Below, piece by piece: positions 1 to 58,022 of a stretch of 64,000 nucleotides of DNA. Within the stretch, counting starts at the first letter, position 1. The number at the start of each line of letters is the position of its first letter. The notes beneath the pieces are model-generated. The model did not search any database, had not been told where the DNA came from, and saw only the letters and a list, made by a program, of their open reading frames with translations. Location of the stretch: contig CAVPVX010000007.1 of NCBI GenBank assembly GCA_963709345.1, positions 480,001 through 544,000 of the forward strand. Direction: 5' to 3'. The DNA is from an uncultured Actinomycetes bacterium. GTDB lineage: Bacteria > Actinomycetota > Thermoleophilia > UBA2241. A program made the position numbers and the translations under genes.

Positions 1-2833
<2,833 letters not shown>

Positions 2834-53718: not shown

Positions 53719-53860
53719 CCGTCCCTGCGGCGCCGCCGTTGAGGGCCCGCCCTGAGGCGTGGTACTCTCCTGCCGCCCGTCGCTTGCGGCGGTCACTTGT
53801 GTGCCGAGTGGCTCCCGCGGCGGCGCCCTGTCCACCATCCGGAGAGGCCGGCGCATCGAC

Positions 53861-54755
53861 ATGGACAACGAGACGACCCACCGCGAGCGAGCCGAGAGAG
53901 GCCCGCTCCCCGCCGAGGCGCGCGCCGCCAACCTTCAGCTCTGGAACCACTGGACGAACGTCCATGCGCGGAGCGCGTACTACGACGTCGACGGGTTCAA
54001 GGCCGGCAAGACCTCGCTGTGGCCGCTGGAGCTCGCAGAGCTCGGCCCGCTGATCCGGGAAGGCACGACGCTCCTGCACCTGCAGTGCCACTTCGGCCTC
54101 GACACACTCAGCTGGGCGCGGATGGGCGCCGAGGTCGTCGGGCTCGACCTCAGCGACGAGGCGATCGAGTTGGCGCGGCGCCTGGCCGCCGACACCGGGC
54201 TCTCCGGCCGCGCCGATTTCGTCTGCTCCGACGTATACGATGCCGGCGCCCACCTCGGCGAGCGCCTCTTCGATATCGTCTTCGTCAGCTGGGGGGCGCT
54301 CGAGTGGCTCCCCGACCTCGAGCGCTGGGCCGCCGTCGTCGCCCGCCACCTCCGCCCCGGCGGCGTCTTCTACCTGGCCGAGATCCACCCGTTCGCCTAC
54401 GGCCTCGAAGAAGTCGCCGGCGAGCACGACGTCCGCGTCGCCTACCCGCTTCTGCCGGCGCCCGAGCGCCCTGCCGTCGAGCCCGTCGAGGGCAGCTACG
54501 CCGACCCCGATGCCGACACGACCGGCCTCGTCTCGTACGGCTGGGCACACAGCTTCGCCGAGATCATCGCGGCCCTCACCGGCGCCGGTCTCCGGCTCGA
54601 CCACCTGCATGAGTTCCCCTGCTCCCCTGCTCCCATTCTGGGACTGGATGGTCCAGGATGACGACCGCTGGTGGTGGCTCCCGGACGGCGACGGCGGCCA
54701 CCGCCGCGACCTGCCCTTCAGCTACTCGCTGCGCGCCACGCGCCAGGCGACCTGA
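53861..54755 (+). CDS. Class I SAM-dependent methyltransferase (frameshift near 54630)
   Basis: LLHLQCHFGLDTLSWAR, GLDLS, GALEWLPDL, LRPGG; C-terminus LPFSYSLRA in the adjacent frame. Confidence 0.88.
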
Positions 54756-54767
54756 CGAGGGGCGGCC

Positions 54768-55601
54768 ATGCTCGACAACTACCTCAAAGCCAATCTCGCC
54801 AGCTGGGATGAGGCCGTAGCCCTGCACGTCGGCTCGGAGCTTTACGACGTGGCCGGGTTCAAGGCGGGCGCCACGTCGCTCGGCCCCATCGAACTCGAAG
54901 AGCTCGGGCCGCTGGTCGGCGAGGGCACCACGCTGCTGCACCTGCAGTGCCACTTCGGGCTCGATACGCTGAGCTGGGCGCGGCAGGGCGCCGATGTGAC
55001 CGGCGTCGACTTCTCCGGCGAAGGCATCGCGACGGCGCGCTCCCTGGCCGACGAAGTCGGCCTCTCCCAGCGCGCGACCTTCATCCAGAGCGACGTCGAA
55101 GGGCTGCCGGACAGGCTGTCCGGCGAGTTCGACGTCGTGTTCAGCTCCTGGGGAGCCCTCATCTGGCTGGGCGACCTGGAGCGCTGGGCGCAGGTGGTCG
55201 CCCGCTTCCTCAAGCCGGGCGGGACCTTCTATATCGCCGAGTTCCACCCCTATGCGTTCCTCATCGCCGACGACGCCACGCCGGAGGCCATGCGCGTGGG
55301 CTATCCCTACTTCCAGCACGGGACCCCCCAGCGCTTCGACGAGCCCGGCGACTACGCCGACCCCGATGCCTCGCAGCGCAACACCGTGACGTTCGAGTGG
55401 AATCACGGCTTCGGCGAGATCATCGACTCACTGCTGCAAAGCGGCCTGAGCCTGGACTTCCTGCACGAGTTCCCGTACACGGTCCCCGGCCTGCCCTTCG
55501 ACTTCCTCGAGATCTGCGAGGACGGGCTGCAGCGCGTCAAGGGGCGCCACGACGACTTCCCGCTCACCTTCTCGCTGAGGATGACGAAGAGCGCACGCTG
55601 A
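54768..55601 (+). CDS. Class I SAM-dependent methyltransferase, paralog of the preceding gene
   Basis: LLHLQCHFGLDTLSWAR, GVDFS, GALIWLGDL, LKPGG, FPLTFSL. Confidence 0.92.
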   Translation: MLDNYLKANLASWDEAVALHVGSELYDVAGFKAGATSLGPIELEELGPLVGEGTTLLHLQCHFGLDTLSWARQGADVTGVDFSGEGIATARSLADEVGLSQRATFIQSDVEGLPDRLSGEFDVVFSSWGALIWLGDLERWAQVVARFLKPGGTFYIAEFHPYAFLIADDATPEAMRVGYPYFQHGTPQRFDEPGDYADPDASQRNTVTFEWNHGFGEIIDSLLQSGLSLDFLHEFPYTVPGLPFDFLEICEDGLQRVKGRHDDFPLTFSLRMTKSAR

Positions 55602-55686
55602 GCGGCTTTGGACCGGCGCCTGAGGACCGCCACTGTGGAGCCGCGGCGCCGCAACATTTCTTCACACGCGGACGATCCGGTGAGCC

Positions 55687-55715
55687 TTGACCAGAATCCT
55701 GGTCGAGCGTATTCT
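55687..55715 (+). promoter_or_regulatory. Sigma70-type promoter with overlapping palindrome and no downstream + strand ORF
   Basis: TTGACC, 17-nt spacer, TATTCT; GACCAG-aatc-CTGGTC inverted repeat at 55689-55704. Confidence 0.7.
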
Positions 55716-55720
55716 TTTGG

Positions 55721-55842
55721 TGCGCCTTCACAATCAAAACCTGAGAAGGCGCGTCCCGTCAGGGGGACAAGACCGGTGCTGGCCCACCCGCACCGAAGCC
55801 CCTCGAAGGCGGCGCCTCCCCTCCAGGCGCCGCCTTCATTTT
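55721..55842 (+). ncRNA. Putative ~120-nt structured small RNA, family not recognised
   Basis: Lies between the promoter and an intrinsic terminator; four consecutive hairpins; no RBS or credible ORF; the next gene is convergent. Confidence 0.6.
55805..55842 (+). terminator. Intrinsic terminator
   Basis: GAAGGCGGCGCCT-cccctcc-AGGCGCCGCCTTC 13-bp stem followed by ATTTT. Confidence 0.8.
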
Positions 55843-55911
55843 GGGGGACCGTCCACACCTCGCGCCGCACCGCCCCGAGGGCGAGCGGCAGGCGGACGAC
55901 CGCACGCCGCT

Positions 55912-56751
55912 TCAGGCACCGGCGTGCGCCTGCGCGGCGAGCGCCTCGAGAAACGCCGGGAGGCCGGCGCGCGGCACCACGAGATCGGCGGCTGCGCGTA
56001 CCGGCGCGGCGGCCTCGGCCACCGCCACGCCCAGCCCGGCCCAGCGGAGCATCTCGACGTCGTTCATACCGTCGCCCAGTGCGACGACCCGCTCGCGGCG
56101 CAGACCGAGACGGCCGCGGACCCACTCGAGGGCGACGCTCTTGCGCACCGACGCGTCGGCGAACTCGATGTACTCCGCCTGCGAACGGGTCACATACATG
56201 CGGTCGTCCCAGCACGCGTGCAGCTCCGGCGCCAGGCGCTCGACATCGTCGGCGGCGGCGACGAGGACGAGCTTCGTCGGCGGCCTGGCCGCGACCTCCG
56301 CCGCGAGGTCGGGGACCCTGTGGATGCTCACCTCGACGTGCTCGGCGTACCGGCGCGCCCACTCGTTCACCCGCTCGACGTACAGGCGATCGTCGATGTA
56401 GGCGTTGAGGTGCCGGCCGAGACCGGCCACGTGGCGCACCACCTCCGCGGCGAGCTCGCCGTCCATACGCACGTGACGCAGTTCCTCGCCCGAGGCGAGA
56501 TCCGCCACCACGGCCCCCTGATAGCACACGATGAGTCCCTCGTCGACGCCCAGCCGCGCCGCGACCAGCCGCGCGCTGCGGAACATGCGGCCGGTGCAGA
56601 TGACGGTCGGCACCCCGGCCGCGCGAAGCCGCGCCAGCGCCTCGGGGATCCCCGGCGTTATGCGGTGCCCGAAGTCGAGGAGTGTGCCGTCGAGGTCGGC
56701 GGCAACGAGATCGGCGCGAAACCCCGCGGGCGGAAACGGCTCAGCGGTCAA
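55912..56751 (-). CDS. Cof-type HAD-IIB hydrolase (start uncertain, 56751 or 56796)
   Basis: ADLDGTLL, CTGR, YQGA, K, GDGMNDVEML. Confidence 0.9.
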   Translation of the reverse strand: MTAEPFPPAGFRADLVAADLDGTLLDFGHRITPGIPEALARLRAAGVPTVICTGRMFRSARLVAARLGVDEGLIVCYQGAVVADLASGEELRHVRMDGELAAEVVRHVAGLGRHLNAYIDDRLYVERVNEWARRYAEHVEVSIHRVPDLAAEVAARPPTKLVLVAAADDVERLAPELHACWDDRMYVTRSQAEYIEFADASVRKSVALEWVRGRLGLRRERVVALGDGMNDVEMLRWAGLGVAVAEAAAPVRAAADLVVPRAGLPAFLEALAAQAHAGA

Positions 56752-56880
56752 CGATTGCCGACCGCCGCGTTCTGGGTACAGTGAAGGTGTATCCATCGAT
56801 ACGAGGAGAAGCACAGACCCCGGCGCCCACGGGGCGGCTTCTCATGAAGGCCTGGCGATTCCCAGGCCTTCCTTCTGCCC

Positions 56881-57444
56881 TCACGAGCGCTTGCCGGTGG
56901 CGCGGCGCAGCGACGTGACGACGAGATCGAGACGGGCGAGGTCAACCCCGCCGAGACGGCGCAGGTCGTCGCGCAGCGTCGCGAACGCGCGCTCGCGAGC
57001 TCCGGCGACGTCGTCCGGCGGCACAGCGGCCTCGAAGCGCGCCCGCCACCCCGCCGGCTCGTGGCGCAGCGACACGCTGCTGACCCGTGAGCCGGGCACC
57101 ACACTCTGAAAGCGGCTCGCCATCCCTCGCTCGAGGCCCGCCACGCTGACCCGCGCCTGGGTATCGCCGTCGGAGAACGAGATCGTCTCGGATCCTTGCC
57201 GGCCGTCGCCGAGCTGGCGTACCGCCAGCACGATGAGGAAGACGGTGGCGGCGGCGAAGACGGCCGCCGCCACTCCGGTGGTGGCCCACGACGGGTCGTC
57301 GGTGAGCGCGGTCCACCAGCTTGACTCCGGCCACCGCAGTGTCCCGTCGGCAGCGAGCGACGCCTGGCGTACCAGCGCGGCGCCGGCCAGCACCAGACAG
57401 GCGATGCCGGCGATGACGGCCGCGACCCGGGCGAGCGCCGTCAC
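56881..57444 (-). CDS. AmaP-like membrane protein of the Asp23 operon
   Basis: GTG overlapping the upstream stop, two TMs then a soluble alpha/beta domain; last gene of the asp23 operon. Confidence 0.65.
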   Translation of the reverse strand: MTALARVAAVIAGIACLVLAGAALVRQASLAADGTLRWPESSWWTALTDDPSWATTGVAAAVFAAATVFLIVLAVRQLGDGRQGSETISFSDGDTQARVSVAGLERGMASRFQSVVPGSRVSSVSLRHEPAGWRARFEAAVPPDDVAGARERAFATLRDDLRRLGGVDLARLDLVVTSLRRATGKRS

Positions 57445-58022
57445 GGCAGGTACCTCCCCAGCTGTGACACCGTGAGCACGCGCACGCGTACGTCGACCCG
57501 GTCGATATCGCGTCCGGCGAGGCGCGCGAACCTCGCGCGCACGGCCGGCTCGACCGCCTCCTTGACGGTCGCGGCATCCGCGAGCGGTCGCGCCAGTACG
57601 TGGGCGCGGGCCCGCAGGGCCCCGCCGCGCCCGGTCAGCGAGACCTCGGCACGGACGACGTCGGGGTGGGAGGCGGTCGCGGCCGCGGCCGCCGGCTGCT
57701 CCAGGGCGGCGGCCGGGACGAGCGCCCCGCCGGTGGCGGAGGCCAGCCACAGCGTCTCCTCCCCGTGACGGAGCACGAGCCAGATCAGGACGGCGAGGAT
57801 CACCAGCGCCGCACCGAGGAGCCACGCCAGCACGACCGCGTCGTCCGAGAGGGACAGGTAGGCGAACGGCGAGAAGCCGCAGCCGAACGCCGCAGCCGTG
57901 AGGCGCGTGGCGAAGAGCATCGCCACGAGACCGCCGGCGAGGAGCAGGCAGAAGGCGGCGAGCCGGGTGGTGGCGCCCGCCGAGAGGCCGGCGGGCCGCC
58001 GCGCGTCAGTCGGCGGAGTCAG
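57441..58022 (-). CDS. AmaP-like membrane protein (possible CTG start at 58022; first ATG at 57926)
   Basis: Open frame extends upstream of the ATG through a hydrophobic helix to a CTG preceded by GGAGGAG. Confidence 0.65.
   Translation of the reverse strand: MTPPTDARRPAGLSAGATTRLAAFCLLLAGGLVAMLFATRLTAAAFGCGFSPFAYLSLSDDAVVLAWLLGAALVILAVLIWLVLRHGEETLWLASATGGALVPAAALEQPAAAAATASHPDVVRAEVSLTGRGGALRARAHVLARPLADAATVKEAVEPAVRARFARLAGRDIDRVDVRVRVLTVSQLGRYLP

Follow-up and report, generated by a model that had tools for sequence, protein, structure and literature searches.

Actinobacteria possess a stand-alone small RNA (sRNA) named 6C (RF01066; B11 or ncRv13660c in mycobacteria and scr3558 in Streptomyces), whose last two hairpins carry C-rich loops and whose final hairpin is the terminator. 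In the relevant passages of two papers, 6C is defined by two stem-loops with at least six cytosines each (PMC6486639, PMC8388888), and one of these passages describes the C-rich loops as binding to G-rich mRNA sites in a chaperone-free manner (PMC6486639). Here we analyzed a 64,000-nucleotide stretch of DNA (the window; contig CAVPVX010000007.1, positions 480,001 to 544,000) of an uncultured actinobacterium of the class Thermoleophilia, in which a reading made from the letters alone, hereafter the sequence-only reading, had pointed to a four-hairpin sRNA candidate with C-rich loops at positions 55687-55842 of the plus strand. The results presented below make it very likely, as judged from sequence comparison, that this element is a real and uncatalogued small regulatory RNA of uncultured Thermoleophilia soil actinobacteria. 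It represents a new RNA family of a known mechanistic kind, which was detected in one Thermoleophilia order only and is absent from Rfam, and it maintains an unusual and obligate tail-to-tail partnership with a gene encoding a Cof-type HAD phosphatase.

The features of the locus are compiled in Table 1. All elements named in the sequence-only reading were located at 55687-55842 on the plus strand, i.e. a promoter and four hairpins followed by an AUUUU tail. The near-consensus promoter (TTGACC-17-TATTCT) was the sole sigma-70-like site detected when positions 55000-56500 were scanned (0.1 expected). The minimum free energy fold of region 55718-55845 (plus strand) consists of exactly the four hairpins that had been described and has an energy of -67.7 kcal/mol; the mean of shuffled sequences was -46.5 kcal/mol (z -6.04), and none of 200 shuffles matched the native fold. 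At the RNA level, hairpin 1 is formed by pairing of GCGCCUUC with GAAGGCGC; its loop is A/C-rich in the window, and the consensus of this loop is the A/U-rich sequence AGUCWAAAC. Most likely, the RNA corresponds to a stand-alone gene on the plus strand with its own housekeeping-type promoter, and its transcript would start 5-7 nt past the -10 box and end at the U run.

Table 1. Features of the sRNA locus and its surroundings (positions are those of the window)
Feature	Position	Strand	Description
Sigma-70-type promoter	55687-55715	+	-35 TTGACC 55687-55692, 17-nt spacer, -10 TATTCT 55710-55715
Predicted sRNA transcript	55720-55842	+	~123 nt; ends deduced from promoter geometry and hairpin 4
Hairpin 1	55722-55752	+	Arms GCGCCTTC 55722-55729 / GAAGGCGC 55745-55752; 15-nt loop ACAATCAAAACCTGA
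Hairpin 2	55753-55768	+	GUCCC-GUCAGG-GGGAC, nearly invariant
Hairpin 3	55774-55795	+	CGGUGC/GCACCG; C-rich loop TGGCCCACCC (DNA), UGGCCCACCC (RNA)
C-rich linker	55796-55804	+	AAGCCCCUC, predicted to be single-stranded
Hairpin 4 and tail	55805-55842	+	13-bp stem 55805-55837; loop CCCCUCC 55818-55824; AUUUU 55838-55842
Upstream box	55651-55665	+	GCAACATTTCTTCAC, conserved sequence, ~21 nt 5' of -35
Cof-type HAD-IIB phosphatase gene, convergent	55912-56814	-	Pfam Hydrolase_3 (PF08282), E 7e-48; TIGR00099
SAM-dependent methyltransferase gene	54768-55601	+	Upstream flank of the RNA
Methyltransferase gene, tandem paralog	53759-54661	+
314-aa open reading frame	56881-57825	-	Directly upstream of the phosphatase gene

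Homologs of the RNA are widespread within one order. Within the genus of the window, BLASTN searches with the RNA stretch gave matches in 21 of the 24 genomes, whereas 16 genomes from other families of the class yielded none. Alignment of the loci revealed that conservation begins at the -35 box and collapses immediately past hairpin 4. Within the promoter the hexamers are fixed and the spacer is variable; TTGAC and TAnnnT are held at a constant distance from the RNA while the sequence between them is free to change (genera g1, g23, g16, g19-g22 and g24). Of the 89 genomes that make up the family, 75 were matched with E values of at most 0.001 by a covariance model built from 21 sequences (R1), and these matches cover 10 of the 11 genera; family and order are equivalent here, since both comprise the same 89 genomes. 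Full-length R1 matches, scoring 57-159 bits, numbered 55, of which 42 belong to the window's genus, nine to g23, and one each to g19, g21, g22 and g24. No full-length match beyond the order was found when 125 genomes of other families of the class were searched with R1; 12 of these contained weak matches, which did not exceed 26.8 bits and mainly involved hairpin 4 alone. This picture was unchanged when loci outside the order were tested with a second model, R2, based on 55 sequences. Also, no RNA homologs were found next to HAD homologs at 29 loci of other actinobacterial families, 20 of which (those other than L130-L138) yielded just a tRNA in an Rfam scan.

Consistent patterns were obtained with searches based on hairpin 4. 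The pattern GGCGCC-N1-3-CCCTCCR-GGCGCC is present in 53 of 80 family genomes, compared to 9 of 321 from elsewhere in the class, and the reversed control pattern was found 4 times. The hairpin 4 core pattern is single-copy in the genome of the window and in nearly all f1 genomes that carry it. A scan of all species genomes with the core pattern resulted in many chance matches in GC-rich bacteria among the matches listed; among these (80 loci), the RNA itself was encountered in metagenome-assembled genomes of Thermoleophilia only, six times in full-length and once in partial form. The RNA is single-copy in its genome, where no paralogs were detected except for one hairpin-only match of 19.5 bits on contig C1.

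The covariation analysis was based on the 55 full-length sequences, in an alignment fitted to the model; the counts given in this paragraph refer to this set unless indicated. Standard pairs occupied 94.2% of the helix cells, compared to 85.2% in shuffles, and double-sided changes were observed in 19 of the 34 pairs. The covariation score was 0.255 versus 0.100 for shuffled alignments; none of 500 shuffles reached the native value, and the maximum of slid controls was 0.081. Double changes affect 7 of the 10 pairs of hairpin 1, where 28 sequences have G-C and 27 have G-U at pair 8-44, 2 of the 5 pairs of hairpin 2, which has 95.9% of its cells paired, and, on this model-fitted alignment, all 7 pairs of hairpin 3. 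In hairpin 4 every cell is paired (100%), 7 of the 12 pairs never vary and 3 display double changes. An unfitted approach, plain MAFFT followed by RNAalifold on 26 diverse members, recovered the outer stem of hairpin 1 together with hairpins 2 and 4. When sequences were folded individually, four hairpins were obtained for 40, three for 14 and five for one of them; the last hairpin presented the CCCUCC loop in 55 out of 55 folds, a hairpin also formed at the site of hairpin 3, and the CCCACC run was located inside its stem in four. Compensatory changes thus appear to support hairpins 1 to 3, hairpin 3 via the fitted alignment alone.

The sequence-only reading had also proposed an alternative fold, in which the 5' arm of hairpin 1 pairs with the 5' arm of hairpin 4. 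This fold is possible in the window and in 20 of the 55 homologs, but it is not a conserved feature; it is broken exactly where hairpin 1 has compensated changes, indicating that evolution keeps hairpin 1 and not the alternative. The possibility that the region corresponds to a small coding open reading frame (ORF) was rejected on the basis of two observations: 133 of 138 indel runs in the 55 sequences are not multiples of three, and each of the plus-strand frames contains stops in 21-30 of these sequences. The search for homologs and covariation suggested at the outset thus revealed order-wide conservation, compensatory changes that support the hairpins, and indels of a non-coding type. Taken together, the conserved position of the promoter, a structure kept by compensatory change and the non-coding character of the region support the view that this is an independent sRNA gene.

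Two comparisons allowed us to delineate the parts of the RNA that are kept everywhere. The linker, in the form GCCCCU/A, is present in all 55 full-length homologs. A deviating form is found in g15 (12 genomes; loci L069, L072-L078 and L080-L083), in which the unit is ~60 nt longer at its 5' end and is preceded, in the same orientation, by a different promoter-like box (GTGTGAGA-N-GGGTACACT). Hairpins 1 and 3 of g15 differ as well, the loop of hairpin 3 being GCGA, but a UCCCC/GGGGA hairpin, the linker ACCCCA and hairpin 4 with loop UUACCCUCCG are retained. Therefore, the universal elements are hairpin 2, the linker CCCC and hairpin 4 with CCCUCC, and the C-rich loop of hairpin 3 is not among them. 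Of the C-rich, anti-Shine-Dalgarno-like loops that had been put forward, only that of hairpin 4 is thus universal, and the linker must be added to it. The g15 form suggests that the same 3' module may be driven there by a different sigma factor or regulator. Constancy of the CCCUCC loop is informative in another respect: mere folding, termination or antisense pairing would let this loop vary, and hence its conservation indicates a sequence-specific partner.

Comparison with catalogued families showed that the RNA was rightly regarded as unrecognised. Rfam 15 gave no match at gathering score over the whole window, and the sub-threshold matches obtained in E-value mode all arise from the C-rich loops plus the terminator. 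Assignment to a known Rfam family was rejected accordingly, as nothing exceeded the sub-threshold level. The 6C model RF01066, for which membership requires 47 bits, gave no match on region 55550-55950 at E values up to 10. Its best score in the same genome was 19.4 bits, at another site on contig C4, and in 151 genomes of the class none exceeded the cut-off, the best being 35.3 bits in another genome; these negatives are weakened by the stricter filters of the tool used and by a C. glutamicum control that scored below the cut-off. Positive cases were nevertheless recovered with this model, which scored 89 bits for three genomes of genus g134 and 44-48 bits for two of genus g99. In the reverse direction, neither R1 (E up to 1) nor R2 (E up to 0.1) gave a match at the 6C positions of five loci (L139-L143).

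The genetic surroundings lead to the same conclusion. Two 6C loci were inspected (L141 and L142), and in both the 6C gene lies beside a ParA/MinD-like gene and is divergent from a HAD gene of family PF12710. BLASTP comparison of the PF08282 neighbour of the present RNA with the 6C-linked PF12710 HAD protein gave an E value of 23, and no homolog of the latter was detected in the genome of the window. Orthology with 6C by synteny was therefore rejected, the neighbour being a convergent PF08282 gene here and a divergent PF12710 gene there. That a HAD-superfamily gene adjoins both RNAs is taken as a coincidence and given little weight.

The likeness to 6C concerns architecture and probable mode of action. 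Both are actinobacterial stand-alone sRNAs that end in two hairpins with C-rich loops, the final one being the terminator of 6C and the putative terminator here, and the 6C loci that we folded display this same two-hairpin 3' architecture. Both are also likely to act through these loops on G-rich mRNA sites, as set out for 6C in the passage cited above (PMC6486639). Unlike 6C, the RNA described here has four hairpins instead of two, the two extra 5' hairpins being without a 6C counterpart, and its loops contain CCCACC and CCCCUCC in place of runs of at least six C. The hairpin 4 loop CCCCUCC does contain six cytosines, but these are broken by a U, and the six in the hairpin 3 loop UGGCCCACCC are broken by an A. 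In addition, covariance models match in neither direction, and the HAD neighbour belongs to another subfamily and is convergent instead of divergent. As far as the sequence tells, the RNA resembles 6C in mechanism but is not a demonstrable member of the family, so that the comparison with 6C drawn in the sequence-only reading is apt for the mechanism and fails for membership. A 6C-like unit scoring 35.3 bits, which is sub-threshold, was observed in genome G064 of the same genus (L293, ~1501-1574, minus strand). It consists of two hairpins with loops CUUCCCU and UCCCCCC and an AUUU tail, and has no BLASTN match in the genome of the window.

Three other described systems share features with the RNA. 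The cuckoo RNAs of Alphaproteobacteria (CcsR1-4/ar14; RF02791 and RF02344) occur in tandem copies and are linked to DUF1127 genes. Like the present RNA they contain hairpins, including the terminator, with an anti-Shine-Dalgarno-like loop. However, this loop is CCUCCUCCC in the cuckoo RNAs and CCCCUCC here, the phylum is different, the RNA studied here is single-copy without tandem copies or DUF1127 linkage, and scores were far below the gathering values (20.5 versus 65.3 bits for CcsR1 and 18 versus 58.8 bits for ar14). Besides Scr3202, these two families were the only ones with weak Rfam matches. Scr3202 of Streptomyces (RF02833) was the top sub-threshold match and also has two hairpins with C-rich loops and a terminator stem of the type CGGCGCC...GGCGCCG, but it scored 25.4 bits versus a gathering value of 52 in a gapped alignment. 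Finally, GadY and gadX form a convergent sRNA/mRNA pair with overlapping 3' ends, in which GadY acts on the gadX mRNA. The present sRNA gene is likewise convergent with a protein gene whose 3' end it overlaps or abuts; unlike for GadY-gadX, the conserved loops point to further targets in trans.

The convergent gene on the minus strand, noted as such in the sequence-only reading, encodes a phosphatase of the Cof subfamily (147.5 bits for TIGR00099, with a cut-off of 137). This gene is located just 3' of the RNA and convergent with it in 68 of 70 loci, representing all genera, whereas the upstream methyltransferase gene is present in 46 of 70 only. One of the two exceptions is a contig that ends too early; the other, L070, contains the RNA but lacks a phosphatase gene up to a distance of 1.5 kb. 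The RNA is absent from five genomes of the window's genus that are 97-100% complete, and in all five the phosphatase ortholog is missing as well: four have no match at an E value of 1e-5, and the fifth has only a match of 36% identity, compared to 44-88% for the adjacent phosphatase orthologs elsewhere. Based on synteny and joint absence we conclude that the RNA and the phosphatase gene are kept and lost together. The earlier claim that the RNA has no ORF to serve is for this reason only half right: it does stand alone with a convergent gene next to it, but it is tightly coupled to that gene.

The distance between the phosphatase stop codon and hairpin 4 is 74 nt in the window and varies from -177 to +195 nt among loci, and the stretch in between is not conserved. 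For 33 of the 68 loci, this codon either falls within the RNA gene or is at most 10 nt away from hairpin 4. The stop codon of 12 loci is the TCA of CUUCAUUU, so that the U tail of the RNA reads on the opposite strand as a lysine codon plus a stop. In six loci (L012, L013, L015, L057, L059 and L084) the phosphatase frame stays open up to hairpin 4 and runs through this part of the sRNA gene in antisense orientation; the extensions in these loci add 7 to ~60 residues (e.g. ...SEGGAWRGGAAFEGP...). Since stop codons abut or fall inside the RNA gene, the phosphatase mRNA must often extend into hairpin 4. This hairpin would terminate the sRNA, and the HAD transcript that converges on it probably ends there as well.

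The interpretation that we favour, with a probability of about 0.55, is that the RNA is a trans-acting sRNA whose anti-Shine-Dalgarno-like loops pair with G-rich ribosome-binding regions. A non-coding RNA of ~123 nt with four hairpins would be produced from its own promoter. The universal stretches predicted to be exposed, the linker CCCC and above all the CCCUCC of the hairpin 4 loop, resemble the anti-Shine-Dalgarno end of 16S rRNA, and could, in a 6C-like manner, bind to mRNAs at G-rich ribosome-binding regions, an established means of blocking such sites, and thereby reduce the translation or stability of these mRNAs. Hairpin 4 would end the sRNA and probably the phosphatase mRNA too, thereby tying the two genes together. 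Transcription, the RNA ends, mRNA pairing and any effect on the phosphatase are what we infer from these data. The target prediction suggested in the sequence-only reading was carried out as an energy scan of 2351 genes of the same genome, for which rough GC-frame ORFs with uncertain start codons were used. The hairpin 4 loop does favour initiation regions (mean -11.7 kcal/mol, versus -9.5 kcal/mol for mid-gene controls). The initiation region of the phosphatase gene is unremarkable (quantile 0.56); the upstream methyltransferase is at quantile 0.03 for loop and linker alike.

Several results weigh against this interpretation. Preference for initiation regions is expected of any CCUCC sequence, and the top predictions in this one genome (a zinc-ribbon membrane protein, a pilin-like protein, MurA and others) did not form a coherent target set. 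Strict linkage and co-loss with the phosphatase gene fit a local role in cis at least equally well. Hairpin 3 and the inner part of hairpin 1 are absent from the unfitted MAFFT/RNAalifold consensus of 26 members. Concerning the terminator of the sequence-only reading, hairpin 4 and the ATTTT are where they had been placed and the hairpin is present in all homolog folds, but a terminator scan did not call it, because its tail holds just four T, and reported a chance hairpin within the spacer of the promoter; moreover, in many homologs the U tract is weak or near-absent (GGCCUU, GCUUAU). Finally, the fold of the reverse strand is of almost the same quality (-73.6 kcal/mol, z -4.3), and the structural strand test favours the plus strand only modestly: helix cells pair in 94.2% of cases when read as plus and in 92.6% when read as minus, and G-U cells number 77 versus 47 A-C cells. 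It is therefore chiefly the promoter that assigns the RNA to the plus strand.

This fold energy and the pairing of minus-strand helix cells, together with the regular position of the element behind the phosphatase gene, are what one would expect if the structure belonged to the minus strand, as a 3' untranslated region of the phosphatase mRNA with G-rich loops, the promoter being due to chance or unrelated. We nevertheless consider this very improbable. The TTGAC-N17-TAnnnT motif is conserved in position with a variable spacer, conservation is bounded at the -35 box, and g15 has substituted another promoter-like box without a change in orientation; besides, G-U cells outnumber A-C cells, and the stretch from stop codon to hairpin 4 is unconserved and of very different length among loci. 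Another view is that the RNA titrates a protein, hairpins 2 and 4 being bound by an RNA-binding regulator or a ribosomal component and not by mRNAs. It would explain that the sequence of the hairpin 4 stem, with its seven invariant pairs, and nearly that of hairpin 2 are fixed beyond the needs of pairing, and it agrees with the failure of the target scan to produce a coherent set. Yet a repeated binding motif such as those of CsrB or 6S is lacking in the RNA, its neighbourhood does not include a linked candidate protein, and the constraint on the hairpin 4 stem may stem from its serving both strands, which makes titration improbable in our judgement.

The linkage described above raises the possibility that the RNA acts mainly in cis, as an antisense partner to the phosphatase gene, such that the 3' ends, overlapping at hairpin 4 or over a longer stretch if termination is leaky, pair, or the polymerases collide, and thereby set the stability or level of the mRNA as in GadY-gadX. 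Convergence in nearly all loci compared to the looser association of the methyltransferase gene, the proximity or overlap of stop codons in about half of them, the six frames that run antisense through hairpin 4, and the joint absence from five of five genomes at least 97% complete are all in line with such a role, and a weak U tract would favour read-through. We regard it as rather unlikely to be the main role: complementarity would be automatic here, which leaves unexplained why the loop, linker and hairpin 2 are constant across genera, in the window the stop codon and hairpin 4 lie 74 nt apart, L070 has the RNA without the gene, the minus strand lacks a U tract past the hairpin, and the linkage may be due simply to the cost of separating two genes with a common terminator. 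Trans action and cis action are mutually compatible. As transcripts sharing an end hairpin have exactly complementary loops, CCCCUCC in the sRNA and GGAGGGG at the mRNA 3' end, a kissing switch between the 3' ends of this obligate convergent pair can be envisaged. The sRNA would then be a global blocker of ribosome-binding sites that replaces 6C in this class, and the phosphatase mRNA would either titrate it or be under its control. We put this forward as a speculative proposal that is more likely to be wrong than right by some distance.

No description of a small RNA of Thermoleophilia was found in the literature searched. For this widespread and mostly uncultured class of soil and sediment bacteria the results provide a well-supported RNA family with covariance models that can be used in genome annotation. 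They also carry a recurrent theme, that of C-rich loops mimicking the ribosome, over to a lineage where 6C, the usual actinobacterial example, was not detected. Besides, the sRNA and the Cof-type phosphatase gene, with their shared 3' ends, constitute a defined two-gene module in which RNA control in trans and in cis can be separated by experiment.

Some additional observations concern sequences related or adjacent to the RNA. The upstream box has a conserved form, GCAACAWWTCTTCAY, in many loci of genera g1, g23, g21 and g22, ~10-22 nt 5' of the -35 box, and no second copy of GCAACATTTCTTCAC with up to 2 mismatches exists in the genome of the window; this box may be the putative site of a dedicated regulator or an UP-like element. 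A different sRNA-like unit is found in low-GC Thermoleophilia of family f6 (L099, 301-332; L100, 201-232, minus strand; L104, 301-411; L105, 301-389). It comprises a hairpin with loop CCCUUCAUCC and a terminator, GCAAACGGCGCC-UCCCUCCA-GGCGCCGUUUGC-AUUU, of which the inner stem and loop are the same as those of hairpin 4, and locus L101 of family f3 contains the sequence AGAAGGCGGCC-CCCCCUCCA-GGGCCGCCUUC. The likeness of these f6 and f3 sequences to hairpin 4 may reflect a class-wide 3' module or convergence. On the 5' side of the sRNA gene, the two S-adenosylmethionine (SAM)-dependent methyltransferase genes are tandem paralogs, ~52% identical over the part seen, and such a tandem pair is present in many related loci as well. 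The 314-aa ORF upstream of the phosphatase gene did not match any Pfam or NCBIfam family; it is found in most related loci with 34-83% identity (tblastn). A GC-rich hairpin, AGGCCUGG...CCAGGCCU, is located between this ORF and the start of the phosphatase gene.

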